In this document: one piece after another, positions 17,436 through 34,466 of the stretch
Position numbering within the stretch: the first letter of the stretch is position 1
How the letters are laid out: each line of letters starts with the position of its first letter
Assembly: GCA_039586365.1 (NCBI GenBank)
Contig: JBDHKN010000015.1
Location: 1-60,673, forward strand
Direction of reading: 5' to 3'
From: Gemmatimonadota bacterium
GTDB lineage: Bacteria > Gemmatimonadota > Gemmatimonadetes > Gemmatimonadales > GWC2-71-9
DNA: 60,673 nucleotides
Made by a program: the position numbers and the translations under genes
Notes under the pieces: model-generated
What the model saw: only the letters and a program-made list of their open reading frames with translations
The model's database searches: none
What the model was told of the DNA's origin: nothing

Positions 17436-17743
17436 TGTGCTTGTCTCCGTGGGGAAGTCGGGCATAACGGTGATGTCCAGAATAACCTGGGGACGGGCCG
17501 GAGGGCAGGAGTCCCGGGTCCCGAGAATCCACAACTGCTTGATATCATCACGATCATCTCACCGGCCACCCTCTCGGGACGACTCTATTGAGATGGAATT
17601 TCGGTCACATCTTGCGAGGTGACAAGGTGCAGCGTGGTGTAACGGCTGACAGACCACTTCTCCTCCGCAGTGATCTTGTTAGAACTGCACTTTCTCATCC
17701 GTTTACCGGGTATGATTACAGAGGTGGCTGATTGGGGGAGGCT

Positions 17744-19051
17744 ATGAGGCTACTCCGCAGTCTGGCTGGCTTGGTGGCAGTCGCGCGTCAGGGCAGATTC
17801 CTCGCGCTGACGACCGTCAGCTCCGTTCTGCTGACGGGCTGTGGTGAATCAGCGCCGACCGTTCAGTTGCTCACCAATTTTGAGGGTGCCTCGCTGGGAT
17901 CTCACGTCCGGACCGGCGATTGGGCATTCGACCTCACGATCGGCCACGACTCCAATTCCGATTTCCTACGCTGGTATTCATTTCGCATCGCAACGGCAGA
18001 GCTCGCCCCGTTCACATTCCACATAATCAATGCTGGTCAGACCAGTGCGGCCGCCGCTTGGCCCTTCAACCAGCCGGTCGTGAGTCAGGATGGGGGGGCC
18101 ACGTGGCAACGAATTGCGGACGTAGGGTATGACGGACAGGTGTTCACGTTCAGGTACACACCGGTCAGTGCATCGGGTTGGATAGCCTATAGCCCGGTCT
18201 ACAACTACTCACGCTGGACGGGATTGGTCGCTGAGATCAACGATCACCCAAGAGTCAGATCCGTCGCTGTGATAGCCAACAGTCTCGCTGGGAATCCGAT
18301 TCACCTCGTCGAAGTCACGGACCCCACAGTCCCGGCTCTGGACAAGTCTGCAATCTGGGTCACGGCCAGACAGCATCCGGCTGAAGCTGGCGGATCCTGG
18401 ATGGCCGAAGGCATGCTCGATTGGATTCTGAGCGAACAACCGGCCGCCAGGGAACTGCTCCGAAGCGCGGTCGTGTATCTCGTGCCGTTCATGAATCCCG
18501 ACGGCGTGCTGTTGGGGAACTACCGAGTCAACCGGGTTGGTGTCAATCTCAACCGCGTGTGGAACGACGCCGATCCGAGCTATGCCCCTTCGGTGGCTGC
18601 AGTGGTTCGGGAGATGGAGAGCTTCGTGGCCGACGGCGGCAACATAGCGATCTTTGTCGACTTCCACACCCACTCAAGCGAACGCAAGAACTTCTTGATC
18701 TACAACGGCGCGGACATCACCAGCCCCCAAATGGGAGCCGAGATCGAGGCGTTCACGGCGGTGTTGAACCGCATCAACCCCGATTTCACCGCAGCAGGCT
18801 CGGAGCAGGGGGGCATCGACACCCGGCTCGCCAGGGCGTGGGCATATCAGGCGCTGGGTATCCATGCGGTCACCTGCGAAGGTTCCTACCAGGATGTCGA
18901 CCACGGACCCGGTGCAGGCCACTACATGACCGTCGATAGGTACCTTGACCTCGGTGCAGCGTTTGGAAAGGCAGTTGCAGAGTTCTTCTTCGGCATCTCT
19001 GAAGGGGACGGCCTGGCTCTGCATCGTTGGGCTGCAATTACCGAGGGTTGA
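17744..19051 (+). CDS. M14 zinc carboxypeptidase (CCP/Nna1-like), probable lipoprotein
   Basis: NFEG...WYSF N-terminal domain, ARQHPAE, NPDG, NLNR, DFHTH; lipobox LLTGC. Confidence 0.85.
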   Translation: MRLLRSLAGLVAVARQGRFLALTTVSSVLLTGCGESAPTVQLLTNFEGASLGSHVRTGDWAFDLTIGHDSNSDFLRWYSFRIATAELAPFTFHIINAGQTSAAAAWPFNQPVVSQDGGATWQRIADVGYDGQVFTFRYTPVSASGWIAYSPVYNYSRWTGLVAEINDHPRVRSVAVIANSLAGNPIHLVEVTDPTVPALDKSAIWVTARQHPAEAGGSWMAEGMLDWILSEQPAARELLRSAVVYLVPFMNPDGVLLGNYRVNRVGVNLNRVWNDADPSYAPSVAAVVREMESFVADGGNIAIFVDFHTHSSERKNFLIYNGADITSPQMGAEIEAFTAVLNRINPDFTAAGSEQGGIDTRLARAWAYQALGIHAVTCEGSYQDVDHGPGAGHYMTVDRYLDLGAAFGKAVAEFFFGISEGDGLALHRWAAITEG

Positions 19052-19318
19052 GCAGAGACGTTTGGGGGGATGGGACGGCGGGTGCGAGCAGTGGTCGACC
19101 CGCTTTGGCCACGCAACTCCCGAGAACGTTGTTGGTTGCCATAGTTCTATACGGCAGTGCGGCCCGTGGATGGTGAAGCGATGCGATCCCGTCACCATGT
19201 GGCGGGGTCGTTGTGTTTGTGGCAACTTCTGTCGGTCGGCAGCGGTGTTGTTGAGTGTACCGCCCGGGGGGACCCAACAGTTGCTCGACCACAGTCTCGT
19301 CTGGGGGAGGGAAACTCC

Positions 19319-22300
19319 ATGCACAAACACTTGGTTTTTCTGATAGTACTCGGTCTGGCGGCGCAGTTAGGCCATCGATCGCCATTAACTGCACAGCAGT
19401 ACAGCGAGGGCCTGTTCAACGAGATGCATTGGCGCATGATCGGACCATTCCGCGGTGGCCGCACGAAGGCAGCCGTGGGCATTCCCGATCAGCCCAACGT
19501 CTTCTACATCGGAGTCGTAAACGGTGGGGTATGGAAGACAACCGATTTCGGCCGCATTTGGCGGCCGATCTTCGATGATCAACCCACGGGCTCGATAGGT
19601 GCCATCGCCATCGCACCATCTAATCCAACCATCATGTACGTTGGCAGCGGTGAAGGACTGCAGCGTCCCGATCTGTCAACCGGCGACGGCATATACAAGT
19701 CAACCGACGGTGGTGAAACCTGGACACACTTGGGATTGCGCGACGGTCAACAGATTCCGCAGATCATAGTCGATCCCGCCGATCCGGACAGACTCTTCGT
19801 CGCTGTGCTCGGCCATCCGTATGGCTCCAATCGAGAGCGGGGCATTTTCCGCTCGACCGACGGCGCGCGCACATTCGAGAAGGTCCTTTACAGGGATGAG
19901 AACACTGGTGGCGTCGATGTGGCGTTCAACCCGAGCAACGCACGGACCGTCTACGCGGTCCTCTGGGAGGCCCGCGAAGGGCCGTGGGAGAACGGGGTGT
20001 TCCGTGGTCCGGGAAGTGGATTGTTCAAGTCCACCAACGGTGGTGACGCGTGGCGCCAGCTGACTCAGGGACTGCCCAACTTCGAGGACGACGGGCTGAG
20101 CCGCATCGGGATCACCGTAGCACCCAGCGAGCCCGATCGCCTCTTTGCTACGGTGGAATCCCGCAGAAACGGCGGCCTGTACCGTTCCGACGACGCCGGC
20201 GAGAGCTGGTACCTCATCAACGACGATCCACGGGTCACTCAGCGCGGCTCAGACTTCGCCGAGGTCAAGGTCCATCCCACCGACCCGGACATCGTCTTCA
20301 CGGGCAGCATCGTGGTTTGGAAGTCCACCGATGGCGGCAGGACGTTCACGGCGATCCGCGGCGCGCCCGGCGGGGACGACTACCACCGCATTTGGATCAA
20401 CCCGGGCAACCCCGACATCATGCTGATAGCCGCCGACCAGGGAGCCATAATCACGGTTAATGGGGGTGAGACTTGGAGTTCCTGGTACAACCAACCCACC
20501 GCACAGTTCTACCACGTCACCACCGACAACGCCTTTCCCTACCGCGTCTGTAGTGGGCAACAAGAGAGCGGCTCGGCATGCGTTCAGAGCCGAGGCGATC
20601 ACGGGCAAATCACGTTTAGGGAGTGGAGCCCCGTTGGCGTAACGGAGTACGGCTACGTCGCACCAGACCCGCTGGACCCTGACATCGTATACGGCGGTAG
20701 GGTGACTCGGTTCGACCGTCGCACCGGCCAGGTACAGGACGTAACCCCAAAGCCGCTGCGCGACGAGGGGTACCGAGTGGTCCGGACCATGCCGATCCTG
20801 TTTTCGCCACTCGACCCACACACGCTGTATTACGCCTCGAACGTCCTTTGGAAGACGAGCAACGGCGGTCAGAGTTGGGAACAGATCAGCCCGGACCTGT
20901 CGCGCGAGACCTGGGAAGTGCCTGCTAACGTAGGCAAGTACCGCGGCACCCCGGCGGCAACGGTGACCCGGCGCGGTGTCATTTACACCATCGCGCCGTC
21001 TCACATAGACATCGGCGTCATCTGGGTAGGGACCGATGATGGCTTGATTCATATGACACGGGATGGAGGTGTAACCTGGTCTGACGTCACACCTCCCGAC
21101 CTGGGGCCGTGGGCCAAGATTTCTCTGATGGACGCATCACACTTCGACTTGAACACAGCCTACGCCGCAATCAACACCCTACGACTCGACGACCTACGCC
21201 CTCACATCTACCGCACGCGGGACGGGGGCCAGAGCTGGACACACATCACGAACGGCATTCCTGACGGTGGCATCGTGAACGTGGTGCGAGAAGACCCGCA
21301 GCGACCGGGGCTGCTCTTTGCGGGAACAGAGCAGACAGTATACGTGTCATTCGATGACGGTGACCAGTGGCAATCGCTCCGCTTGAACCTGCCGGCCACC
21401 TCGATTCGTGATCTCGTCATCAAGGATGACGATCTAGTGATCGGGACCCACGGACGTGGATTCTGGATCCTGGACGACATCACTCCACTCCGGCAGATCA
21501 GTTCCGCCACCGTCATGAGCGATGCATTCCTGTTCCAGCCGCAGCAGGCATGGCGCTTCCGTTGGAACAAGTACACCGACACACCGCTGCCACCTGACGA
21601 ACCGGCGGGAGAGAACCCTCCAGATGGGGCGACAATCAACTACTTCCTGAGGGCGCAGGCAGAAAGCCCGGTAACGCTGGAAATCCTGACTGAGGGTGGA
21701 GAACTCGTGCGACGCTATTCCAGCGCTGACCAGCCTGAGCCACCACTGGAAGGTCAGAACGTACCGGATTATTGGCCGCGACCGCCGCAAGTGTTGTCTG
21801 CTGAGGCCGGCCTGCATCGTTTTGTCTGGGATCTGCACTATCCGCGTCCTGCGGTGCTCCGGTTCAGCTATCCGATATCTGCTGTCGCCGGGAATACGCC
21901 GGTGACACCGGAGGGCCCGTGGGTCCTCCCTGGTCGCTACACGGTCCGGCTGACTGCAAACGGTGATACCCAGGAGCAACCGCTCAGCGTGACGATGGAC
22001 CCACGGGTCATGACACCTATGGCCGAACTCGAGCGGCAGCACCGGTTGTCAATGCGGCTGTACGAGCTACTGCAGCAGGATCTCAACGCGCTGAATGAAG
22101 TGCAAACCCACCGTGCCGACTCACGCAACGAGGAGTCCGACAACGAAGCAGCCGCACTAGAGACCAGCCTAGCGAGGCTCAACAACAGTCTCGGGTCGCT
22201 GTACCGCATAGTCGAACGCGCCGACGTCGGACCTGCGGCACAAGTGGTGGCCGCAATCGGGCAGCTGGAGCGCGAACTCGGCGAAGTACTGGATCGGTGG

Positions 22301-22330
22301 CAGGAACTCAGAGCGAGGAGTACGAGCTAG
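19319..22330 (+). CDS. Secreted BNR-repeat/VPS10(sortilin)-like putative glycosyl hydrolase
   Basis: WRMIGPFRGGR, repeated S/T-x-D-G-G-x-T/S-W Asp boxes, GTHGRGFWILDD. Start ATG 19319 after GGAGGG. Confidence 0.88.
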   Translation: MHKHLVFLIVLGLAAQLGHRSPLTAQQYSEGLFNEMHWRMIGPFRGGRTKAAVGIPDQPNVFYIGVVNGGVWKTTDFGRIWRPIFDDQPTGSIGAIAIAPSNPTIMYVGSGEGLQRPDLSTGDGIYKSTDGGETWTHLGLRDGQQIPQIIVDPADPDRLFVAVLGHPYGSNRERGIFRSTDGARTFEKVLYRDENTGGVDVAFNPSNARTVYAVLWEAREGPWENGVFRGPGSGLFKSTNGGDAWRQLTQGLPNFEDDGLSRIGITVAPSEPDRLFATVESRRNGGLYRSDDAGESWYLINDDPRVTQRGSDFAEVKVHPTDPDIVFTGSIVVWKSTDGGRTFTAIRGAPGGDDYHRIWINPGNPDIMLIAADQGAIITVNGGETWSSWYNQPTAQFYHVTTDNAFPYRVCSGQQESGSACVQSRGDHGQITFREWSPVGVTEYGYVAPDPLDPDIVYGGRVTRFDRRTGQVQDVTPKPLRDEGYRVVRTMPILFSPLDPHTLYYASNVLWKTSNGGQSWEQISPDLSRETWEVPANVGKYRGTPAATVTRRGVIYTIAPSHIDIGVIWVGTDDGLIHMTRDGGVTWSDVTPPDLGPWAKISLMDASHFDLNTAYAAINTLRLDDLRPHIYRTRDGGQSWTHITNGIPDGGIVNVVREDPQRPGLLFAGTEQTVYVSFDDGDQWQSLRLNLPATSIRDLVIKDDDLVIGTHGRGFWILDDITPLRQISSATVMSDAFLFQPQQAWRFRWNKYTDTPLPPDEPAGENPPDGATINYFLRAQAESPVTLEILTEGGELVRRYSSADQPEPPLEGQNVPDYWPRPPQVLSAEAGLHRFVWDLHYPRPAVLRFSYPISAVAGNTPVTPEGPWVLPGRYTVRLTANGDTQEQPLSVTMDPRVMTPMAELERQHRLSMRLYELLQQDLNALNEVQTHRADSRNEESDNEAAALETSLARLNNSLGSLYRIVERADVGPAAQVVAAIGQLERELGEVLDRWQELRARSTS

Positions 22331-22446
22331 CGAGCCGATCGGTTCCCTTGGGTTCGGTCAATGATCCTGGACATTCAGACACTGCGGCGCCGGACCCACT
22401 CCGGCGCCGCTTGATCAACTGCACACTCCAACAGGAGAGACAAGAG

Positions 22447-23943
22447 ATGCGCTCCCGCGTACCAGCGTTAGCAATCCCTTTGGTTGTTGCCGTCTCCGCC
22501 GTCTTCCAGACAGCCTGTGCTCCCTCTGGTGGTCCGGGGATGGGAGCCATAAAGGAGGATGACTTGCGGCACGATGTGGCCACCCTGGCTCACGACGATT
22601 TCCTCGGTAGGGAGGCAGGGACGCCCAATGAGCTTCGCGCGGCGGCATGGCTTGCTGAACGGGCCCAGGCGGCGGGTCTCCAACCGGCCGGAGAAGACGG
22701 GAGCTACTTCCAGTTCTTTCCGCTCCGCAAGACGCGCGTCTCGGGGGCGAGCTCTGTCAACATCGGTGGCAGGCGATTCGAACTGTGGACCGATGTCATT
22801 GTTACCTCGCCGGTGGACACCAGGGTAGATGGGGCGTTGGTCTGGGTGGGACGAACGCCGGCCGAGCGGATCGAGGCAGCGACGGTTCGAGGGCGACCGG
22901 TCGCTGCGCTACTGCTTGCACCATCCCAGCCGCCGGCAGCCGGCGCCAGGCTTTGGGAATGGCGCTACGCCCGCGCTGCGGTGCGGGAACGTTCCCAGGC
23001 GCTACTGGAAAAGGGGGCGGCCGCAGTGATACTGGTCTCCGATTCCATCGCGGACGCCGTTTTTGATCTCACCGCCGCACGCACGATGGTGGGCCGCACT
23101 GGGCGTGACACCGAGGCGACACGGCAACGCGCGGAAGGTGAACCGCCCGTGCTAGTGGTCAGGGCTGCAAGCCGGACAGACGTTTCCCAGGGACAGCGTC
23201 TCATGACGGCGATCTCGTCGGAGAGTTTCGCATACCCCTCGGCGAACGTGGTGGCGCAGGTGCCTGGCACTGATCCCACTGTGGGGAACGAGCACGTCCT
23301 GTTCAGTGCCCACGTCGATCACGACGGAATCCGAACCCCGGTGGACGGCGATTCGATCTACAACGGAGCGGACGATAACGTCACCGGATGCGCCGCGCTC
23401 CTCGCCATCGGCCGGGCCTTCGTCCAACATCCGGGGAGGCGCGGAGCTCTCTTCGTGTTTCACGGAGCAGAGGAGAAGGGCTTGATCGGGTCCCGCTGGT
23501 ATGCAGAGCATCCCACGGTCGCCCGAGAGTCGATCGTAGCAGCTCTCAATGTCGACATGATCGGCCGGAACGCCCCGGACTCAGCAGCCGTTTTGGGTAC
23601 CGTGGGGCCGAATCGAAACTCCTCTGCACTGGTGGAAATGAGTTTGGCCGCGAATGATGCAGTCGCGGGTTTCGTGCTGGACACCCTGTGGGACCAGCCG
23701 GAGCACCCTGAAGGGCTCTACTTCCGGTCAGATCACGCGCCCTACTCGCAGGCTGGAATACCAGCGCTGTTCTATACGAGTCTGTTACACCCCGATTACC
23801 ACACCCCGTGGGACGAGACGGAGGCGCTGGACTTTCAAAAGCTCTATCGGTTTACCAAGTGGATATACGCCACGGGTTGGGCGGTTGCGCAGGCAGACCA
23901 GCGGCCCGAGATCGATGCTGGGTGGACCTACCCACGGCGCTAG
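22447..23943 (+). CDS. M28 family aminopeptidase (lipoprotein)
   Basis: SAHVDH, NGADDN, AEEKGLIGS, NVDMIGR, RSDH, DYH; lipobox QTAC; AGGAG upstream of ATG 22447. Confidence 0.92.
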   Translation: MRSRVPALAIPLVVAVSAVFQTACAPSGGPGMGAIKEDDLRHDVATLAHDDFLGREAGTPNELRAAAWLAERAQAAGLQPAGEDGSYFQFFPLRKTRVSGASSVNIGGRRFELWTDVIVTSPVDTRVDGALVWVGRTPAERIEAATVRGRPVAALLLAPSQPPAAGARLWEWRYARAAVRERSQALLEKGAAAVILVSDSIADAVFDLTAARTMVGRTGRDTEATRQRAEGEPPVLVVRAASRTDVSQGQRLMTAISSESFAYPSANVVAQVPGTDPTVGNEHVLFSAHVDHDGIRTPVDGDSIYNGADDNVTGCAALLAIGRAFVQHPGRRGALFVFHGAEEKGLIGSRWYAEHPTVARESIVAALNVDMIGRNAPDSAAVLGTVGPNRNSSALVEMSLAANDAVAGFVLDTLWDQPEHPEGLYFRSDHAPYSQAGIPALFYTSLLHPDYHTPWDETEALDFQKLYRFTKWIYATGWAVAQADQRPEIDAGWTYPRR

Positions 23944-24142: not shown

Positions 24143-25060
24143 ATGAAGCGACTGCCTCTGAGGTTGGTGGCTCTGGCACTATCGAGTTCAGCTCTTCCCG
24201 GCTGCGCGAACCGGGAAACCGCAAGCTCTAGTATGGCGCTGACTCAACTCCTGCCTGAGCGGATCGATACGTGGACTCGCCAGGACTCTGCAGTCATCTA
24301 CGACCGCGAGACGATCTTCGATTACATAAACGGAGCCGGAGAGGTATATCGCTCCTACGCATTCGGCCAAGTCGCAGTGGCTGCCTACTCCAGCTCCGCA
24401 GCACCTGACATCACCGTCGAGTTGTTCGATATGGGCAACGCAGCCGATGCCTACGGGGTGTTCAGTTATGCGCGGGAGCAGGAGGAGGTGGGGATTGGCG
24501 GGGGCTATGAACACAAGGGGAGAGTGCTCTGTTTCTGGCAGGACCGCTTCTATGTGTGCGTGGCGTTAGAGGAATCCACCCCGCAGCCAGCTGCTGTGTT
24601 GCTGGATTTCGCGCGAACGGTCTCAGGGCACTTACCACCAGTCTCCGATCCTCCCGACCTGGTGGCCATGCTGCCTTCTGAGGGACGCGTCCCGTTCAGC
24701 GAGAGGTTCTTTCATCTCCATCAGTCGCTGAATTACCACTACTATGTGGCCCGTGACAATCTGCTCAACCTGAGTGCCGAGACCGACGCGGTGCTGGCGC
24801 GATACGAGCCGGGTGCGACCTATCTTCTGATTGTCAGGTATGAAACTGAGCGAGCCGCTGTCCGAGCGCTGTCGTCGTTCAGCCAACAGTATCTACCGGA
24901 CGCTGGCGGTTTCGAGACGGTAGAGACCGAGAACGGCAAATTCGTGTCCCATCGGTCTCAAGATCGTTTCGTGGTCGTTGTGCTCGATGCTGATTCGGAG
25001 AGCGCAGCGAGCAGCTTACTCGAGGCGACGGTGGCGAAGATCACCGGTTCGCCGGGCTGA
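24143..25060 (+). CDS. DUF6599-like lipoprotein
   Basis: Lipobox LPGC; IFDYINGAGEVY, VELFDMG...AYGVFS motifs shared with 32022-32849. Confidence 0.75.
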   Translation: MKRLPLRLVALALSSSALPGCANRETASSSMALTQLLPERIDTWTRQDSAVIYDRETIFDYINGAGEVYRSYAFGQVAVAAYSSSAAPDITVELFDMGNAADAYGVFSYAREQEEVGIGGGYEHKGRVLCFWQDRFYVCVALEESTPQPAAVLLDFARTVSGHLPPVSDPPDLVAMLPSEGRVPFSERFFHLHQSLNYHYYVARDNLLNLSAETDAVLARYEPGATYLLIVRYETERAAVRALSSFSQQYLPDAGGFETVETENGKFVSHRSQDRFVVVVLDADSESAASSLLEATVAKITGSPG

Positions 25061-25071
25061 GGGTGAGAGCA

Positions 25072-25968
25072 ATGGGAGGAGAAAAGACAGGCCTCACGCG
25101 GCGGGATTTCATGAAAGGCGTCGGCAGCGTCGCTCTGGGTGTTGCGGCGGGCCTGCCCACGCCGGTTCTTGGATCGGCGAGGCAATCCGGCACATCCCGA
25201 GTGGTGCTGGTTCGTAGTCGGGAAGTCGTCTCAACTGGTGGCGACATAAACGCCGAACTAGTGCAGCAGATGCTGGATGAGGCGGTGGTTGCCCTATTTG
25301 GTCGGGACGAGCTGGCGGAATGCTGGCGCCAGATTATTCGACCGCATGATGTGGTTGGCATCAAGACCAACTCTTGGAGATTCCTGCCCACACCGCCGGA
25401 GGTGGAGCAGGCGCTCAGGCGCCGTGTTGTGCAAGCGGGCGTGCCGGAGGCGAACGTCGCCTTGGACGACAAGCGTGTGCTGCGTAATGAAGTCTTTCAA
25501 CGCAGCACTGCGCTGATAAATACGCGGCCCATGCGTACCCACGCCTGGTCCGGAGTTGGGAGCCTCATCAAGAACTACATCGTGTTCGACAACCCACCCG
25601 ATTATCACGCCGACGCCTGCGCCAGTCTGGCCAAGTTGTGGGACCTTCCGATCACCCGAGGTAAGACCCGACTCAATGTGCTGGTGATGCTCACTCCTCA
25701 ATTCCACAACATCGGGCCGCACCACTTCGATGCCAGTTATGTCTGGCCGTATGGCGGCTTGATCGTCAGCACGGATCCGGTGGCAGCCGACAGTACGGGA
25801 CTTCGCATCATCCAGCGAAAACGGCGGTTGGAATTCGGTGAAGACCGCCCGCTGCAACCGACCGCCCACCACATCGCGCTAGCCGATTCGGAATATCACC
25901 TCGGCAACGCCGACCCGAGCAGGATCGAACTCGTGCGGGTCGGTTGGGAGGGCGATAGCCTGATCTGA
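25072..25968 (+). CDS. Tat-exported DUF362 domain protein
   Basis: TRRDFMK Tat motif; VGIKTN, LINTRPMRTH, IKNY, STDPVAAD. Confidence 0.82.
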   Translation: MGGEKTGLTRRDFMKGVGSVALGVAAGLPTPVLGSARQSGTSRVVLVRSREVVSTGGDINAELVQQMLDEAVVALFGRDELAECWRQIIRPHDVVGIKTNSWRFLPTPPEVEQALRRRVVQAGVPEANVALDDKRVLRNEVFQRSTALINTRPMRTHAWSGVGSLIKNYIVFDNPPDYHADACASLAKLWDLPITRGKTRLNVLVMLTPQFHNIGPHHFDASYVWPYGGLIVSTDPVAADSTGLRIIQRKRRLEFGEDRPLQPTAHHIALADSEYHLGNADPSRIELVRVGWEGDSLI

Positions 25969-26106
25969 CGGTGCTGCCAACCGTCACGATCTAACTTGGC
26001 GGACAGATCGTTGTGGGCCTACTCCCAAATGCGTGGTGGCTCTGCACACCCCGGGGTGTCGACCGCAGCGGTCGTGGGCGCTGACCGGCGGAGGCGATCG
26101 AATTGT

Positions 26107-27771
26107 CTACGCGCGCTGCCTCTCTAGTAGTATTTGGTTGGTCTCGGAACGGGACTCACCAACTGAAGTGATGTAGATGGCCTTCCTGTCCCACACCGGA
26201 CAAGCGTATTCGCAGGCTCCGCAGCCGGTGCAGAGGGCGGGGTCGACATGCGGCCGGCTGACCGTGACTTCGTTGCCCTCCCTGCCAACCGCGGTTTCCT
26301 CCTGGAGGTATATCGCCTTGGGTGAAGTCGGGCACCATTCCTCACAGACGATGCATGACGTGGCCATCGCCCAGGGGAGGCAGCGACCGCGATCGAGAAA
26401 CGCCGTTCCGATCCGGACGGGCTGAGTCTCTTCGTCGCCGACTTTCTGCCGCAGGGTCAGCTCAGTGATGGCACCAGTGGGGCACACTTGCCCGCACAGT
26501 GTGCAGGTCGGCTCACAGTAACCGACCTTGGCTATCAGGTACGGCGTCCACAGACCTTCCAAGCCGGATTCCAGCAACGTGGGGTGTAGGGCGTTGTTGG
26601 GGCATACCCGCATGCACTGGCCGCAGCGGATACAGCGACCAAGGAAATCGTCTTCGGGCTGCGAACCGGGCGGACGTACTAAGGTTGGGGAGCGCTTGAC
26701 CTCGAAGGCATTGCCCGAACGGAACAGCGGCACCACGGCCACGCCGCCGAGCAGCGATGCCATTACCTTGCGGCGAGTCACATCGACTCTGGGCGTTCCG
26801 GCTGGATTCGTCTTGCTGTCGGGCTGGTTGGGGAAGAACCTGAACTTGAGCGCGCCCTCCGGACAGGCTGCCTGGCAGTTGAGACACAGATGACACTCAG
26901 CCTGCCGCCATTTACTGCCCACGTCGGGGTTGTCTGCACCCTGGCATGAAAGCAGACAGCGGTTGCAGGCGTTGCACTCCTTGTCGTCCTTGGCGAGCCC
27001 GAATATAGCAAAGCGCGAAAAGACACCGAGCAGTGCACCGAGTGGGCATATACCCCGACACCAAAAGCGCGTGAACACGCGGTTGAGTAGCAGGATAATC
27101 ACGAAGAATATGCCGAGGACGACTACTCCGTGGAAATGTGCCTGCCGGAACGGTAGCAGTGTCGCGGCGAGCAAGTCGTAGAGTCCCTGCGTAGCGGCAG
27201 CTAGCGGTCCGATTCCCGTATCTCTGCCCGCCGAGGCTAGCGCCAGTGCCGCCGTGTGGAGAGTAGGCAGCAGGGCGGTGCCGATGGAACGAGCCAACAA
27301 CGGTAGCGGGTCCAGCAGTCCGGCTTGGAGGCTGCCCAGCAGTGCCGCACCCAAACAGAAGAACAGGACGTAGTATTTGATCCGTTGATACTTCTTGTAC
27401 CTGTTCGCTTCGAGTAGTCGCTTGCCACGCCGCGCCACACGCTCTGAGCGAATCCCCGAGAGCCAGTGATTGAGGCTGCCGAGTGGGCATACCCAACCAC
27501 AGAAGAAGCGCCCGATGAAGATGGTCGGTATCAGTATTACCAGCGACCAGAGCAATCCCTTGTACAGGGTGCCACTGGCGAGCAAGGTCATCAACGCCGC
27601 GAGTGGGTCGAACTGGAGTGCGATCGAGACCGGGTATGGCAGTCTAATCTCAGACACTTCAGCTGGGCTGAAATCGATCTCAAAGGTCGTCTTGAGAATC
27701 AGCCACAGGAAGACGACGAAGAAGACTACCTGAGATGCGCGCCGTAGGTTTCTGACAGTCTGGATAGTCAT
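26107..27771 (-). CDS. Membrane polyferredoxin (NapH/MauN-like domain fused to NapG/MauM-like domain)
   Basis: TM helices; FFCGWVCPLG, WCRGICPLG; six ferredoxin-type Cys motifs; LVRPPGS; internal VTRRKV. Confidence 0.9.
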   Translation of the reverse strand: MTIQTVRNLRRASQVVFFVVFLWLILKTTFEIDFSPAEVSEIRLPYPVSIALQFDPLAALMTLLASGTLYKGLLWSLVILIPTIFIGRFFCGWVCPLGSLNHWLSGIRSERVARRGKRLLEANRYKKYQRIKYYVLFFCLGAALLGSLQAGLLDPLPLLARSIGTALLPTLHTAALALASAGRDTGIGPLAAATQGLYDLLAATLLPFRQAHFHGVVVLGIFFVIILLLNRVFTRFWCRGICPLGALLGVFSRFAIFGLAKDDKECNACNRCLLSCQGADNPDVGSKWRQAECHLCLNCQAACPEGALKFRFFPNQPDSKTNPAGTPRVDVTRRKVMASLLGGVAVVPLFRSGNAFEVKRSPTLVRPPGSQPEDDFLGRCIRCGQCMRVCPNNALHPTLLESGLEGLWTPYLIAKVGYCEPTCTLCGQVCPTGAITELTLRQKVGDEETQPVRIGTAFLDRGRCLPWAMATSCIVCEEWCPTSPKAIYLQEETAVGREGNEVTVSRPHVDPALCTGCGACEYACPVWDRKAIYITSVGESRSETNQILLERQRA

Positions 27772-27782
27772 GCGGTCGGCAA

Positions 27783-28736
27783 TCAGACGATTTCTTGGTA
27801 TCCGACCGAACGGTAGTCCAGCGATCCCAGCCCCGACTGTGCGGCCAACGCGATGTGACTCACCTGGTCTCCGCTGAGACCCAAGAACTCCGCCGCTCTG
27901 GAATCGGCGGCCACCTGGTCGGTGGAGCAGAGAACCGTGTTCTCTATTGAGACATCATCCAACGAGCCGCCCTGTGGGCCACCCCTGAAGAGAACTCGAG
28001 TTGCATCCACTACGGTGAGCGTCGGACGGACGAAGGCAGCCAGGTCGACTATGGATTGGTCGATCTCTTGGTGCAGCCGGTTGCGACGACCACCGAGTAT
28101 GCCGTACAGGTTCTTCATCCCGACGGTACAGCGGGTAAGCGAGTGTTGCTTGGCGACCGGCATGTTGATCAGGCGGTCAGTCTCGATGAAGTACTTGAGG
28201 ACCGGCCAACTCGTCAGCACCTCGCCGCCGAGATCGACCTCGATGAAGTCTTCCGGGCTGGGAAGCATCACCCTGGCCCCGGCGACCTCGCCGGCTTCCT
28301 TGATACCCGAGCGCAGAAAACTGCGGCGGGGATCGTTGCAGCTGACGTCTGCAACTGTGACTTGGGCGGCGCCGGCGCCCAGACAGAGCCGTACCATCTC
28401 GCTAACCAGAGCTGGATGAGTATTCGCACCCTGCGCGGGAGTGCGGTCCCAGCCGACGTTTGGCTTCACGACAACAGTCTCACCGGCGTGGACGAAGCGA
28501 CCGATTCCACCAATCGCATCGAGGGCTGCATGCAGCGCTGCCACCGGATCGTCGTTCGTGGCTGAAGTCAGAGTGGCAATGGCTGGATCCGGAGGAACTT
28601 CGAAGTTCGCGGTCTTAGCTAGTACGGTGCGCCGCCGCGTGGTCTCGCGGTTGTGGAACACGAACCCGGTAGTACCGGTGACTGCAGCAAGAGCCACCGC
28701 CGGGCCGGTTCGCTTGATGAAATCCCTACGTTCCAT
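27783..28736 (-). CDS. Tat-exported DUF362 domain protein
   Basis: ERRDFIK Tat motif; VVKPNVGWDR, ANTHP, INMPVAKQH, GMKNLYG, DQVAAD. Confidence 0.88.
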   Translation of the reverse strand: MERRDFIKRTGPAVALAAVTGTTGFVFHNRETTRRRTVLAKTANFEVPPDPAIATLTSATNDDPVAALHAALDAIGGIGRFVHAGETVVVKPNVGWDRTPAQGANTHPALVSEMVRLCLGAGAAQVTVADVSCNDPRRSFLRSGIKEAGEVAGARVMLPSPEDFIEVDLGGEVLTSWPVLKYFIETDRLINMPVAKQHSLTRCTVGMKNLYGILGGRRNRLHQEIDQSIVDLAAFVRPTLTVVDATRVLFRGGPQGGSLDDVSIENTVLCSTDQVAADSRAAEFLGLSGDQVSHIALAAQSGLGSLDYRSVGYQEIV

Positions 28737-29030
28737 TTGCTGATGACACCGCTCTCCGGGTTCCGCTCAGTATACTACAGTCGCCTACGAGCGACGGCAA
28801 ACCAATCGTGAATGGTTCTTTAGACACAATCGATAGGACGAGTACGGAACGACATCGCCAGTGCCGCTGCTGAAGCTCGGAGTTAAGTTGTCCGGGACCA
28901 GTTCGTGTCATGGTTGCATAGCGGCAGCAGTAGGTATTGAACAGCCTAAGACGAACGTTCGAATGGTCTGCAGTCGAGTAGTCAATAACAGCGGTGACGG
29001 TTGACCGTCGTCGATAATCTGGAGAGAGCA

Positions 29031-30365
29031 ATGGGTTCGAGAGACCAAGTCGGCCGGCGTGGGTTCCTGAAATCGACGGGTATGGCTGTCGTTGGTGGTG
29101 GCATCATGTCGGGGCGGGTAACCCGCAGCGCCGCGGACGAACAACAGGGTATGGAAATCAAGGTGCGCGAATACCGCACGCTGGGACGCACCGGCTTCAA
29201 GGTCTCGGACATTGGCTTCGGCACGGGGTTCTTCGACAACGCCAACGTGCTGCAAGTCGCCCTCGACATGGGAGTCAACTATATCGATACCGGTGAGCAC
29301 TACGTGAACGGGCAGGCAGAACGAACTGTCGGCCAGGCTTTGAAGAACAGGGACCGCAAATCGATCTTCTTGACCACGAAGCTGAACTTGTCGTTCGGCG
29401 GGGGGGCAACGCAAGAAGATATCAAACGAAGATTCCAGCAATGTCTGGAGCGGTTACAGACCGACTATGTCGACTGCTTGATGATCCATATGACCCCCCG
29501 GGTAGAACAGGTGAAACACGAGGGGTTCCACGCCGCATATCAAGAACTGAAGGCCGAGGGGAAAGTGCGGTTTCTCGGTCTGTCGAACCATGGCAGGCAA
29601 CAGTCGTGGTGGGGCCGGGTGGAAGATCACATGGAGGATATAGTCGGTGCCGCGGCTGAAGACGGCAGGTTCGACGTGGCCCTGTTTGTGTACAACTTCC
29701 TGCAAAAGGAGCAGGGTGAACAAATCATCGCGGCATGCAAAGCCCGCAACATGGGTGTCACCCTGATGAAGACCGATCCCGTAAACCTCTACGCGCAGAT
29801 CACGGAGTCTCTCGAGCAGGCGAGGGAGCGCGGGAGGCAGATCTCGGATGCGCGCGTCCGCATGGCACAGGACTACCGGTCGTATGTACAGCGGGCTGAG
29901 GAGTTCAAGCGGAGACACGGCTTGCAGTCAGACGCTCAGGCGAGAGCCGCGGCCATCAAATTCGTCCTCGGCCATCCGGACGTGCATTCGGTATGTCCGA
30001 GCATCAACACGCTGGATGGGCTGGAGAGCTTCGTGACACTTTCGGGCACGAAGCTCACTGAGGAAGACGACTCCATGCTCGATGACTACGGGAAGTTGCT
30101 GGGGACCTTCTACTGCCGCCACGCGTGCGGCGACTGCGAACCCTCCTGTCCCCAACAAGTCCCCGTGAACACCATCATGCGCTACAACCACTATTTCGAG
30201 GCACACGGCAGGGAGAAACATGCCATGGTGCAATACGCCAACTTGACTGCAGCCCATGCGGATGGTTGTCTCGGTTGTTCCGGTTATTGCGAGTCGGCAT
30301 GCCCTCACGGAGTCCCGGTGCGGACACTGCTGGCCCGAGCACATCAGAACCTGACGCTGGCATAG
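29031..30365 (+). CDS. Tat-signal aldo/keto reductase with C-terminal 2x[4Fe-4S] domain
   Basis: GRRGFLK; YRTLGRTG, IDTGEHY, TKL, LQTDYVD..IH; CRHACGDCEPSCP and CLGCSGYCESACP. Start ATG 29031 after GGAG. Confidence 0.9.
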   Translation: MGSRDQVGRRGFLKSTGMAVVGGGIMSGRVTRSAADEQQGMEIKVREYRTLGRTGFKVSDIGFGTGFFDNANVLQVALDMGVNYIDTGEHYVNGQAERTVGQALKNRDRKSIFLTTKLNLSFGGGATQEDIKRRFQQCLERLQTDYVDCLMIHMTPRVEQVKHEGFHAAYQELKAEGKVRFLGLSNHGRQQSWWGRVEDHMEDIVGAAAEDGRFDVALFVYNFLQKEQGEQIIAACKARNMGVTLMKTDPVNLYAQITESLEQARERGRQISDARVRMAQDYRSYVQRAEEFKRRHGLQSDAQARAAAIKFVLGHPDVHSVCPSINTLDGLESFVTLSGTKLTEEDDSMLDDYGKLLGTFYCRHACGDCEPSCPQQVPVNTIMRYNHYFEAHGREKHAMVQYANLTAAHADGCLGCSGYCESACPHGVPVRTLLARAHQNLTLA

Positions 30366-30586
30366 CGGCCGGTAGTGAATCGCTGACTGCCGGACAGCGC
30401 TCGCCGCTTGTCTCTAGCCTGCGCCGGCCTCCGCGCCACGCGGTTGGAGGTTATCATATCAGGGTTTCCAGAGTGCCGGCGACCATCGGTCGAGCCCCAG
30501 CGAACCGGCCGACGATCTGTCGCACGAAGCTGTGCCACACAGGTTATTAGCAGTCTGACTCACGCTCACCCGTCGGGAGGCGCATT

Positions 30587-31984
30587 ATGAGTGACGATTA
30601 CCACTGTGAACGCGAGCACGGCGGTATCTCACGGAGGAACTTCGTCAAGGTTGGCGGTGCAACTCTAGCGGGAGGAGCGTTGCTGGGGGGTAACACGACA
30701 CCGGCTGCTGCCAGTAGCGGTACCGGCCTGTTTTCCTATCGACCGCGCCAAGACGCACGCATCCAACGTCATCGTACGCTGGGCCGGACCGGCTGGAACG
30801 TGTCAGATATCGGTATGGGGAGCGTCCCGCTGAGGGAAACCGCAGTAGTCCGCTACGCGTATGACAAGGGAGTCAACTATTTCGACACGGCGGAGGGTTA
30901 CGGCAACGGGGCCGCCGAGCGAGCTATTGGCGATGCGATGCAGCACATGGAGCGGGACAAGATCTTCATCGCCACCAAAGGGCGCGTCAACGCCGATGAC
31001 AGCGCGGCGACAATAGTCGAGCGCGTTCGCAACAGTCTCGAGCGGCTACAAACCGACTACGTCGACGCCTATTCCATACACGCCGTAGGTTCGGTCGAGG
31101 CGTTGAGCCATTCTGGTTACCACGCGGCGATTGAGCAGTTGAAGGCGGAGGGCCGGGTTCGGTTCACCGGAGTCTCATACCACGGACCTGGGAACCCCCA
31201 GGGGCCTAGCATGGGCGACGTGTTGACTGCCGCTGCCGAAGACGGTCGCTTCGACATCATCCTCTTGGTCTACAACTTCTTGAATCATGAAGAGTCGGAC
31301 CGAATCATCGCAGCCTGCAAAGCCAACGATGTGGGTACGACGGCGATGAAGACCGCGCCCGGAGTGATACGTTACCAACCGTTGGACCCCGACAACCTCA
31401 CCGAACAGCAGGAACGCTATGTCGAGCGCTTCACCAGCCGGGGGCAGAGTCGCGAAGCGGCGCTCCAGCGGCTCGAGGCCCAGACGCAGCGGCAAAAGGA
31501 CTTATACGACCGCACCCGGCCGTTCGTCGACCGGTACGGACTGCAGACCGAGGAACAGCTCAGGCTCGGCAGCATCCACTGGGTGATTCAGAACCCTGAC
31601 ATGCACACCGCGTGCATCGCGTTCACCAATTTCGATCTGGTGGACAAGGTAATCCCGCTCTCCGGTACCGAGCTCGGCTCGGCTGAGTTGCGAATGCTCC
31701 AGGAGTGCAAGCTGGCGCTCAGCGACCAGTATTGCCGCCACGGATGTACGGAATGCCGCGGCAGTTGCCCTCACGACGTGCCGGTGAGCACCATCATGCG
31801 TTACGCATACTACTATGAAGGGCAAGGGCGCGAGAAGGCAGCCATGTCACTGTACTCGGACTTGCGAGGCAGAGACGCATCTGCTTGTCACCACTGCGCC
31901 GGGGATTGCAGCGGTGCCTGTCCCTACGGCGTCGACATACTGCCCAAAATGCTCCAAGTGCACGATCTGTTGACACTGGCTTGA
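30587..31984 (+). CDS. Tat-signal aldo/keto reductase with C-terminal 2x[4Fe-4S] domain (paralog)
   Basis: SRRNFVK; RTLGRTG, FDTAEGY, ATKG, LQTDYVD..IH; CRHGCTECRGSCP and CHHCAGDCSGACP; GGAGG RBS. Confidence 0.9.
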   Translation: MSDDYHCEREHGGISRRNFVKVGGATLAGGALLGGNTTPAAASSGTGLFSYRPRQDARIQRHRTLGRTGWNVSDIGMGSVPLRETAVVRYAYDKGVNYFDTAEGYGNGAAERAIGDAMQHMERDKIFIATKGRVNADDSAATIVERVRNSLERLQTDYVDAYSIHAVGSVEALSHSGYHAAIEQLKAEGRVRFTGVSYHGPGNPQGPSMGDVLTAAAEDGRFDIILLVYNFLNHEESDRIIAACKANDVGTTAMKTAPGVIRYQPLDPDNLTEQQERYVERFTSRGQSREAALQRLEAQTQRQKDLYDRTRPFVDRYGLQTEEQLRLGSIHWVIQNPDMHTACIAFTNFDLVDKVIPLSGTELGSAELRMLQECKLALSDQYCRHGCTECRGSCPHDVPVSTIMRYAYYYEGQGREKAAMSLYSDLRGRDASACHHCAGDCSGACPYGVDILPKMLQVHDLLTLA

Positions 31985-32021
31985 ACAACGTCTGAGCACT
32001 GACGAAGTGGGAGTGCATAAC

Positions 32022-32849
32022 ATGAAACGGATTCTGTCGCTTGCTGTCTCGATCGTAGCGGTCTCCTTTTTCGCATGCTCCGGGCAGGAATCTGACTTCC
32101 CAGAAGTGGCCGGTTGGACACGGGCTGGTGAAGTACTGACCTATGAAGCCGACAACCTGTGGGAGTACATCAACGGCGCCGCCGAATTGTTCGTCGAGTA
32201 CGACGTGCAGACCTGCCGGACTGCTGACCTAACCTCGAACGATGTGACGGTGACGCTTGACCTCTATGACATGGGGACGCCGCTCAATGCTTTCGGGGTG
32301 TTCAACCGAGAGAGTCCGGGTAAGGGAATGCCGCTACCGCAGGCGACAGCGGCCGTGGTGTCGCCACCGTACCAGGCGTTGCTGTTGACGGGTGCCACTT
32401 ATGTGAAGGTCAACGCAGTCGAGGGGGACCTGACCGAGACCACAGGACGCGAGTTGCTCGAGGCAGTTGCCGCGACGTTATCCGGCCAGGCTGGGTACCC
32501 CAGCGAACTTGGGCTGCTTCCGGCCAACGGCAAGGTCGCCGGCAGCGAGGGGTATCAACGCCGGGGCTTTCTCGGGCTCACGGAGCTGACCGACTGCGTC
32601 CACGCCGAGTACTCCGGTGATGGCGACGAGACCTGGCAGGGATTCGTGGTGCTTCCGTCCGCATCCGTCTGGGACGAATTGCCGGAGAGCTGGGATTCCC
32701 TGGAACACAATGGACTCACGGTTAGGTACCGCGAGATTCCCTATCGGGGTCTGGTGGGTGTGGTGAAGACGGCCACGGGTGTCAAGGGGGTTTCGGGTGC
32801 GGCTGACCAGGCAGAGCTGCTGAGTCGGTTGGACGGTTTCATCTCGTAG
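32022..32849 (+). CDS. DUF6599-like lipoprotein
   Basis: Lipobox FFAC; LWEYINGAAELF, LDLYDMG...AFGVF; paralog of 24143-25060. Confidence 0.75.
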   Translation: MKRILSLAVSIVAVSFFACSGQESDFPEVAGWTRAGEVLTYEADNLWEYINGAAELFVEYDVQTCRTADLTSNDVTVTLDLYDMGTPLNAFGVFNRESPGKGMPLPQATAAVVSPPYQALLLTGATYVKVNAVEGDLTETTGRELLEAVAATLSGQAGYPSELGLLPANGKVAGSEGYQRRGFLGLTELTDCVHAEYSGDGDETWQGFVVLPSASVWDELPESWDSLEHNGLTVRYREIPYRGLVGVVKTATGVKGVSGAADQAELLSRLDGFIS

Positions 32850-33011: not shown

Positions 33012-34466
33012 ATGACTGAGCAGAACTCGCCCGCAGCAGCTCCCGCCATCCAGGTGCAGATCTTGGGGAAGTCCGAGATCCAGCGCTTTACCGGGTCGTT
33101 CAACATCGGCCGGGCCCCGGACAATGACGTGGTTGTCTATCACGAAAAGGTCTCCCAGAAACATGCCGCGGTCGTGTTTACTGACGGCCAGTGGTACCTA
33201 CAGGACCGTGGCAGCAGCAACGGGACCTTCGTCTACGGCAAACGGATTGATGGGTCGCGGCTAGCGGGCAGCGTGCGGGTGCGCCTTGGTCATGACGGCC
33301 CGACGCTGGTTCTCACTACTGAGGGCACCGAGCCCGCAGCGCGTCCCACGGTCCTCTCTGAACCGTCGGAGAGCAAGATACTGGACCGGTTCTTCGGTGG
33401 TCGAACGCCGCTGGACATGAGTAGGCACACGGCGCTGTTGCGTAAGGTGCTGCACAAAGAACAGAAGCGACGCGCCAAGCCCTACCTGGTCGCGCTGGCA
33501 GTGCTCGCGGTACTCGCCCTCTGCGCGACTGCGATAACGTACGTTCAGCGCAAGCAGATCCAGCGTGCCCACGCCGCCGCCGCCGATCTGTTTTACGCCA
33601 TGAAGTCCCTGGAACTCGAGGTGGCCCGGCTGCGCGTGAGTGTTGCGGAAGGGCAGTCCTATCGGAATCAACGCGAAGAACTCAGGCGGCAGTATCTGGA
33701 CTATCTCGAAGATTTGGGGATTTATGGTGAGGGCACTCCGGAGGACATCCAGCTCATCTATCGTGTAGTGCATCGGTTCGGCGAATCGGAGGTGAATGTT
33801 CCCCGAGCATTCGTCAATGAGATTCGCCGGTACATCGAACGGTGGCGGCAGTCTGATCGGTTGGATGATTACATCGCCCGGGCCGCCGAGAACGGCTACG
33901 GGCCGATCATCGCAGAAACCATGCTGAGCAACGACATGCCCCCCGAGTTCTTCTACTTGGCGCTGCAGGAGAGTGGCTTCAAATTGGAGGCGGTGGGCCG
34001 AGAAACCCGTTACGGCATCGCCAAGGGAATGTGGCAGTTCATGCCGGAGACTGCTCGTGCGCTTGGGCTGCAAATGGGGCCGCTGGTGGGCGTTGCACAG
34101 TTCGACCCGCTGGATGAGCGGCATCAGCTCGAGAAGTCCACCGAGGCGGCCGCCCAGTACCTGTGGGACATCTACACCACGGACGCACAGGCATCCGGGC
34201 TGCTCGTGATTGCGTCGTACAACTGGGGTCAGGGCAATGTGCTGAGGCTGATCCGGACGATGCCCGAAAACCCACGGGAGCGGAACTTCTGGAAGCTGCT
34301 GACCCAATACCGCGACCGCATCCCGGAGGAGACGTATCATTACGTGTTCAGCATCGTGTCGGCCGCGGTGATCGGAGAGAACCCGTCACTGTTCGGTTTT
34401 GATTTCGACCCGCCGCTGCCACGTGAGCCCGAGACGAGCGAGGCCGGAGAGATTGGAGCGCTCTAA
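33012..34466 (+). CDS. FHA domain - TM - lytic transglycosylase (SLT/MltD-like) fusion
   Basis: FHA: IGRAPDND, VSQKHA, DRGSSNGT; TM LVALAVLAVLALCATAITYV; SLT: ALQESGF, AKGMWQF, ASYNWG, PEETYHYV. Confidence 0.88.
   Translation: MTEQNSPAAAPAIQVQILGKSEIQRFTGSFNIGRAPDNDVVVYHEKVSQKHAAVVFTDGQWYLQDRGSSNGTFVYGKRIDGSRLAGSVRVRLGHDGPTLVLTTEGTEPAARPTVLSEPSESKILDRFFGGRTPLDMSRHTALLRKVLHKEQKRRAKPYLVALAVLAVLALCATAITYVQRKQIQRAHAAAADLFYAMKSLELEVARLRVSVAEGQSYRNQREELRRQYLDYLEDLGIYGEGTPEDIQLIYRVVHRFGESEVNVPRAFVNEIRRYIERWRQSDRLDDYIARAAENGYGPIIAETMLSNDMPPEFFYLALQESGFKLEAVGRETRYGIAKGMWQFMPETARALGLQMGPLVGVAQFDPLDERHQLEKSTEAAAQYLWDIYTTDAQASGLLVIASYNWGQGNVLRLIRTMPENPRERNFWKLLTQYRDRIPEETYHYVFSIVSAAVIGENPSLFGFDFDPPLPREPETSEAGEIGAL

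Follow-up and report, generated by a model that had tools for sequence, protein, structure and literature searches.

The 60,673-nucleotide window analysed here, positions 1 to 60,673 of contig JBDHKN010000015.1 (GenBank assembly GCA_039586365.1), comes from a Gemmatimonadota bacterium and contains a cluster of seven genes at positions 24143-32849 that encode putative exported redox proteins. An open reading frame (ORF) check and a Pfam scan confirmed all seven ORFs at the coordinates given by the original prediction, a reading made from the letters alone. On the forward strand, DUF6599a (24143..25060, 305 amino acids (aa), PF20244 at E 1.4e-26), a predicted lipoprotein, lies immediately 5' of DUF362a (25063..25968, 301 aa), a twin-arginine protein of a divergent DUF362 subtype that matches TIGR01409 and, just over the cut-off, PF04015 (E 3.2e-5). 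The reverse strand encodes a polytopic polyferredoxin of the NapH-NapG fusion type (26107..27771, 554 aa, Pfam Fer4 repeats) and its usual partner, the twin-arginine protein DUF362b (27783..28736, 317 aa, PF04015 at E 1.7e-46). Two aldo-keto reductases (AKRs) follow on the forward strand, AKR1 (29031..30365, 444 aa, PF00248 at E 1.2e-30) and AKR2 (30587..31984, 465 aa, also matching PF00248), each with a twin-arginine motif and a C-terminal tail of eight cysteines. The cluster ends with a second predicted lipoprotein on the forward strand, DUF6599b (32022..32849, 275 aa, PF20244 at E 4.6e-31), which is the usual downstream neighbour of the AKR.

The twin-arginine motifs lie at residue 13 of DUF362a, 3 of DUF362b, 9 of AKR1 and 16 of AKR2, and the polyferredoxin contains an internal one at residue 333. 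Lipobox-like cysteines were found at Cys21 of DUF6599a (LPGC) and Cys19 of DUF6599b (FFAC). All of these signals, like the hydrophobic segments, are regular-expression and hydropathy calls rather than the output of a signal-peptide predictor. The genome (5.44 Mb, 86% complete) encodes tatC, a component of the twin-arginine translocation (Tat) system. At the level of such pattern calls, the claim that every product is exported or membrane-bound is borne out. The proposed three transcription units correspond to three same-strand runs (+, -, +), without a convincing promoter signal at the locus (2 found vs 2.4 expected), and no Rfam match or riboswitch was detected there.

The grouping of the seven genes is not due to chance, because the same grouping recurs in other genomes and phyla. 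It is built of three two-family modules, namely DUF6599a-DUF362a, DUF362b-polyferredoxin and AKRs-DUF6599b. Loci of AKRs were collected by scanning genome contigs with the AKR alignment, and the best 80 of 439 confirmed stretches, many of them on short contigs, were analysed. DUF6599 is present in 54 of these 80 loci, DUF362 in 22, the polyferredoxin in 17 and DUF362a in nine, and in all nine of the latter DUF6599 stands directly 5' of DUF362a. A DUF362b-type gene adjoins the polyferredoxin in 15/20 own-phylum loci, in 32/39 loci of genomes with AKRs and in 17/20 loci of a second phylum. All four families occur together in 13 of the 80 AKR loci, and modules are often unlinked, which lends no support to a single complex of seven subunits. 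We then consider a reading in which three semi-independent modules share a cofactor or a wire and are merely clustered here, and to which the adjacency counts and the 13 complete loci lend weight. So does the distribution of the families in 121 own-phylum genomes, with a full-length AKR in five and DUF362 in 35. Against it, all five of those AKR genomes hold DUF362. Moreover, a DUF362b relative was identified, even where unlinked, in 48 of 50 AKR genomes chosen from the loci (12 carrying the label Gemmatimonadota, 38 without it), compared with 48/151 genomes of an unselected sample around an Acidobacteriota genome, searched at a stricter threshold. The modules can thus stand apart, yet a genome that holds the AKR almost always holds the others too, in keeping with the co-occurrence elsewhere on which the original prediction had been made to depend. 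We regard semi-independent modules as a serious contender, a little short of an even chance, which would fit either of the cofactor assignments weighed below.

AKR1 and AKR2 are 41% identical, and both give C-terminal iron-sulfur (Fe-S) matches. The top PDB sequence match of AKR2 is NphT (9YEB, E 6.6e-16). Passages of PMC13524815 describe NphT as an AKR that tethers a nickel-pincer mononucleotide by Lys200 and binds the nickel by His144. It is a 291-residue monomer that only disproportionates sugars, and its reported features include a covalent +450 Da cofactor, hydride transfer and a capped cavity with contacts from W218, Y219 and G248. The catalytic tetrad is intact in AKR2, with D100/Y105/K131/H165 aligned on D47/Y52/K75/H106 of NphT with a three-residue offset. 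H199 and K255 fall on H144 and K200, and serine replaces T142; W218, Y219 and G248 lie beyond the stretch covered by the alignment. In AKR1, His187 and Lys247 take the same cofactor positions. H199 and K255 are invariant across 98 close sequences (alignment A2), and R16, R17 and F19 of AKR2 are each kept in at least 90% of them. Among 91 more distant AKR ORFs from the 80 loci, which had been picked with scan patterns that left out the His/Lys residues, the histidine is kept in 88 and the lysine in 89, the remainder being gaps or masked positions. The tetrad residue H165 is variable in some relatives (kept in 70/91).

The His/Lys pair and the export signal go together. In seven genomes, with one masked and one fragment row set aside, all 32 AKRs with both residues carry a twin-arginine motif, and none of the 30 AKRs without the motif has the pair (one His site is masked); two AKRs have the motif and lack the pair. 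Many signal-less AKRs show Y/W-S-P-L/M/V where the His/Lys AKRs show M-K. The likeness to NphT therein comprises the AKR fold family, the tetrad, the nickel histidine and the tethering lysine at aligned positions; in contrast to NphT, AKR1 and AKR2 carry a twin-arginine signal, an eight-cysteine tail and a lipoprotein neighbour. The set of larB, larC and larE within 20 genes, which served as the discovery filter for NphT, is absent from this locus. The terms '4Fe-4S', 'DUF', 'periplasm', 'Tat' and 'ferredoxin' do not occur in the main text of PMC13524815, and in 12 of its 17 supplementary files they occur only in an unrelated enzyme list; the remaining five files may list such proteins. Six His/Lys AKRs are encoded in this genome overall. 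The four outside the cluster (C125:158269-162930, C131:37705, C5:8812 and C34:14329) all have twin-arginine motifs, and three are without the Fe-S tail; the one on C125 adjoins a large twin-arginine ORF and a ferredoxin-like ORF with Cys motifs. Another genome, G160 (loci L240-L264), has 12 twin-arginine, His/Lys, Fe-S-tailed AKRs on one chromosome, a paralogue expansion suggesting many substrates.

DUF362b contains the motif Lys196-x-His198-x9-Lys208...His222. Among 150 representatives, 147 of the 148 aligned rows retain K196, and the same count holds for H198 and for K208. H222 is retained in 139 of 146 rows, and no cysteine is invariant, which rules out DUF362 as an Fe-S protein. Because of this, an Fe-S site does not explain the Tat export of DUF362b. 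Being exported without an Fe-S motif but with a LarA-type site, DUF362b probably carries another cofactor. The protein matches only PF04015, with no match to Lar_N (PF09861) and none in PDB sequence searches. The likeness to LarA was seen in the AlphaFold2 model (predicted local distance difference test (pLDDT) 87.9). At E<=0.001 in Foldseek, all matches among those listed belong to the LarA family (13 of 19 rows, the rest being further chains), with E 5e-7 to 8e-5 and template modelling (TM) scores of 0.35-0.50. Furthermore, hhalign with a profile of 20 LarA homologues gave a gapless alignment in which H198 and K208 coincide with LarA His174 and Lys184 (probability 87%, E 3.8e-6). The roles of LarA residues, including these two, are described in passages of PMC11770544 and PMC12611868, and the former also places DUF362 in the LarA clan. 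The predicted fold, the His174/Lys184 equivalents and the shared Pfam clan thus relate DUF362b to the LarA superfamily (Lar_N/DUF2088, clan CL0471; PDB 5HUQ). It differs from LarA in being about 100 residues shorter, in its export motif, in the absence of a clear His108 and in its pairing with a polyferredoxin. As far as they have been characterised, LarA enzymes catalyse redox-neutral racemisation or epimerisation.

DUF362a carries a related arrangement, His160-x9-Lys170-x11-His182, which corresponds to invariant H/K/H columns of alignment A3. Catalytic-looking sites are therefore present in the DUF362 proteins as well as in the AKRs, in line with the suggestion that either or both are catalytic. 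DUF362 is widespread, with 5,819 clusters at 50% identity matched by DUF362b, and this genome holds seven DUF362 genes. They include a second DUF362-DUF6599 pair (C72:68983-70972) and a stand-alone DUF362a paralogue (C107:14466-15377, 69% identical). Elsewhere, a DUF362b relative forms the end of an ORF of roughly 1,450 codons, a possible fusion (L202:9578-13372(-), genome G291). At L167:865-2253(-) (genome G168), a LarA homologue of full length has a twin-arginine-like motif at its N terminus and may be an exported LarA.

The polyferredoxin has hydrophobic segments, two CxxxCP motifs, and predicted clusters divided by the twin-arginine motif at residue 333, two before it and four after it. 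NCBIfam models detect NapH and then NapG similarity along the chain, both below the cut-off (109 vs 269 bits and 65 vs 234 bits). No nap or mau gene was found among the flanking ORFs scanned. The NapH-like N-terminal half, the internal twin-arginine motif and the NapG-like C-terminal half with four clusters resemble the dual Sec/Tat PFD family of NapH-NapG fusions, a likeness of layout and not of sequence comparison with the MLMS-1 protein (PMC5449189, in part). The NapH-NapG-like wire proposed earlier is upheld by the two similarities and by this layout. The PFD account, in passages of PMC5449189, covers membrane insertion and names no enzyme partner or reaction; the partner here is DUF362b, not nitrate reductase.

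The two DUF6599 lipoproteins gave few structural leads. Although the AlphaFold2 model of DUF6599b is good (pLDDT 88.6), Foldseek returned no match at E<=0.001, and the best fold lead, no more than that, was the PknH extracellular domain 4esq (E 0.06, TM 0.29). A PDB sequence search gave nothing useful, the ESM Atlas only unnamed clusters (0.87-0.88), and BLAST no internal repeat. The gene pairing suggests a docking or loading role, because DUF6599 accompanies both an AKR and DUF362a, two unrelated folds.

The genome could supply the cofactor that these sites suggest. Matches to larB, larC and larE are each over the cut-off and lie away from the locus, on contigs C126, C48 and C117; no Lar_N (larA) match was found in this genome at its 86% completeness. 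All three genes are present in 10/12 Gemmatimonadota and 27/50 AKR genomes. In the second phylum sample, larB was found in 42/48 DUF362b-positive vs 67/103 other genomes (p 0.004, kin not being independent). The lar tallies, with that for larC in the own phylum given below, include genomes marked unpublished (G055, G095, G193, G215 and G312). Physical proximity is occasional, with larE directly after the polyferredoxin in 2/20 own-phylum loci (L018 and L027) and larE-larC-larB 2 kb from the module in 1/20 second-phylum loci (L188), where an opposite-strand gene lies between. Judging from these sequence features, the nickel pincer is the likely cofactor of the AKRs and DUF362b. It is this cofactor that the original prediction overlooked, with the NphT His/Lys motif, the LarA fold and larBCE; its account of export, co-occurrence, wire and catalytic-looking sites has held. 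In the own-phylum sample, larC occurs in 89/121 genomes, 59 of them without DUF362 over the cut-off (Lar_N was not searched there), and other clients may exist.

Collectively, we consider it about an even call that the cluster encodes a periplasmic, nickel-pincer-dependent dehydrogenase system wired to quinone, whose proteins may form complexes. The cytoplasmic synthesis of the cofactor by LarB, LarE and LarC is a known pathway, and it would here be served by genes encoded elsewhere in the genome. The AKRs (His199/Lys255) and the DUF362 proteins (His198/Lys208, in a predicted LarA fold) would load the cofactor and be exported folded by Tat. A tethered cofactor would explain how an AKR functions where free NAD(P)H, the reduced nicotinamide cofactor, is unavailable. 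By analogy with NphT, the AKR tetrad may move a hydride from an aldose, an alcohol or an aldehyde hydrate onto the cofactor. Re-oxidation of the reduced cofactor could then fall to the two clusters in the AKR itself or, in the case of DUF362b, to the polyferredoxin's NapG-like domain; this is the weakest step of the scheme, and no precedent for it was found. The NapH-like half would hand the electrons to quinone, as in NapGH, and each DUF6599 lipoprotein, judged from gene pairing, likely docks one enzyme at the membrane. Lineages without larBCE would need to scavenge the cofactor or use an unrecognised route.

Several observations weigh against a nickel pincer in this role. A tree of 62 AKRs needs about three changes of the motif-export label, so that few independent events lie behind the correlation; many independent events can be ruled out, and the link appears to be mostly common ancestry. 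NphT ranks first for AKR2, fifth for the A2 profile and 19th for AKR1, and the overall similarity is thus not NphT-specific. In the hhalign profile alignment, LarA His108 and His200 are not neatly matched in DUF362b: His108 falls on D135, near a partly conserved C133, with no clear counterpart, and H222, conserved as it is, is offset from His200. Of the 50 genomes with His/Lys AKRs, 19 lack larB, larC and larE (larBCE-negative below) and four more have only one or two, completeness not being given; relaxed searches in five large larBCE-negative genomes gave only weak matches below the cut-off. DUF362b is present in 18 of these 19 genomes, and H198 and K208 are kept in 19/19 ORFs from their loci, a motif as well preserved as in lar-positive genomes. 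In a Calditrichota-centred sample of 35 genomes, collected around a Calditrichia genome with a requested completeness of >=95%, four carry the AKR and one of those four has larB, vs 11/35 overall. The control genome of B. thetaiotaomicron has DUF362 without larB, larC, larE or Lar_N over the cut-off. The 80 AKR loci contain no lar gene, nor do the 39 DUF362b loci of AKR genomes, and the own-phylum enrichment is weak (larC in 30/35 DUF362 genomes vs 59/86, p 0.07, kin again not independent). One-electron pincer chemistry was not found in the literature searched. Obligate linkage to larBCE is ruled out by the lar-free loci and the larBCE-negative genomes.

These genomes lend weight to the same exported, wire-linked system holding another bound cofactor, one independent of larBCE, such as a pyridine mononucleotide free of nickel or tightly bound NAD(P). 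The latter is familiar from glucose-fructose oxidoreductase. All motifs are unchanged in the 19 larBCE-negative genomes, one of which (G158) holds five His/Lys twin-arginine AKRs; the presence of larB does not follow that of the AKR in the 35-genome sample; and no recurring transporter or alternative cofactor gene lies beside the larBCE-negative loci across lineages (1,129 ORFs). The same genomes also provide a control that tells against a different cofactor. Lar_N proteins occur in 15 of the 19. In 11 of these the match is strong and the DxTR, GxH, H-x9-K and distal His motifs are all intact; one such protein matches 5HUQ at E 9e-75. Since intact LarA homologues are found in 11 of the same 19 genomes, the absence of larBCE does not single out the AKR and DUF362 families. 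The gap is common to LarA, a known client family (these homologues being uncharacterised), and points to scavenging, an unrecognised route or a second cofactor that fits both sites. The eleven full-length homologues (loci L155, L156, L158-L161, L168, L171, L173, L175 and L176; genomes G127-G153) may reflect cofactor auxotrophy or such a route, and the gap is not addressed in the passages of PMC7583248 and PMC11770544 consulted. Furthermore, a lysine occupies the thioamide-forming position of both NphT and LarA, in unrelated folds, and one phylum sample shows larB enriched alongside DUF362b. A different cofactor is therefore the less probable assignment, though one with a real claim.

Returning to the pincer-dependent dehydrogenase, oxidation is the favoured direction, because aldose/lactone couples lie well below menaquinone. 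For menaquinol, driving an NAD-like hydride carrier is an uphill task, which speaks against electron flow the other way. Such flow, in which electrons from quinol would replenish the enzymes for the reduction of toxic aldehydes or for the repair of envelope components, like NapGH or MsrPQ, is in our view unlikely, even though NapGH is a quinol dehydrogenase (PMC5449189, in part) and NphT reduces aldehydes such as butanal (PMC13524815, in part). It is very improbable that the AKRs are ordinary cytoplasmic, NAD(P)H-dependent enzymes whose export motifs are spurious and whose clustering is accidental: export was called by pattern and canonical AKRs score near NphT, but the conserved R16, R17 and F19, the different residues of many signal-less AKRs in place of M-K and the gene pairing that recurs across phyla all speak against this.

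Outside the cluster, the window contains upstream (17732-23943, +) an M14 carboxypeptidase-like gene, a repeat-rich, secreted-looking protein of 1,057 aa (not scanned) and an M28 peptidase. Downstream (33012-34466, +) lies an FHA domain fused with a lytic transglycosylase domain, which did not turn up as a recurring neighbour.

No description of this gene set was found in the literature searched, subscription papers lying outside its coverage. Searches by COG and Pfam terms gave nothing relevant, no paper on 'DUF6599' was found, and the papers found, as far as their available passages go, assign no function to DUF362, several search matches concerning longer DUF numbers. The characterised nickel-pincer enzymes in that literature do redox-neutral chemistry. 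More tentatively than the core assignment, and well short of an even chance, we propose that the tethered pincer substitutes for NAD(P) outside the cytoplasm. The AKR and the LarA-like DUF362 would act as hydride-to-single-electron converters that feed an Fe-S wire to quinone, with DUF6599 as a shared docking or loading lipoprotein, and many larBCE-negative lineages would depend on other cells for the cofactor, as for a vitamin. The reverse gap, with LarA, DUF362 and His/Lys AKRs in genomes that have no larBCE, suggests either that the cofactor is scavenged or that an unknown one is used. If the proposal is true, it would help to account for the many genomes that make the cofactor but have no LarA. 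The system would be the first exported user of the nickel-pincer cofactor, it would give a function to DUF362 and DUF6599, and the coupling of a pincer enzyme to Fe-S clusters and quinone would represent new respiratory chemistry.

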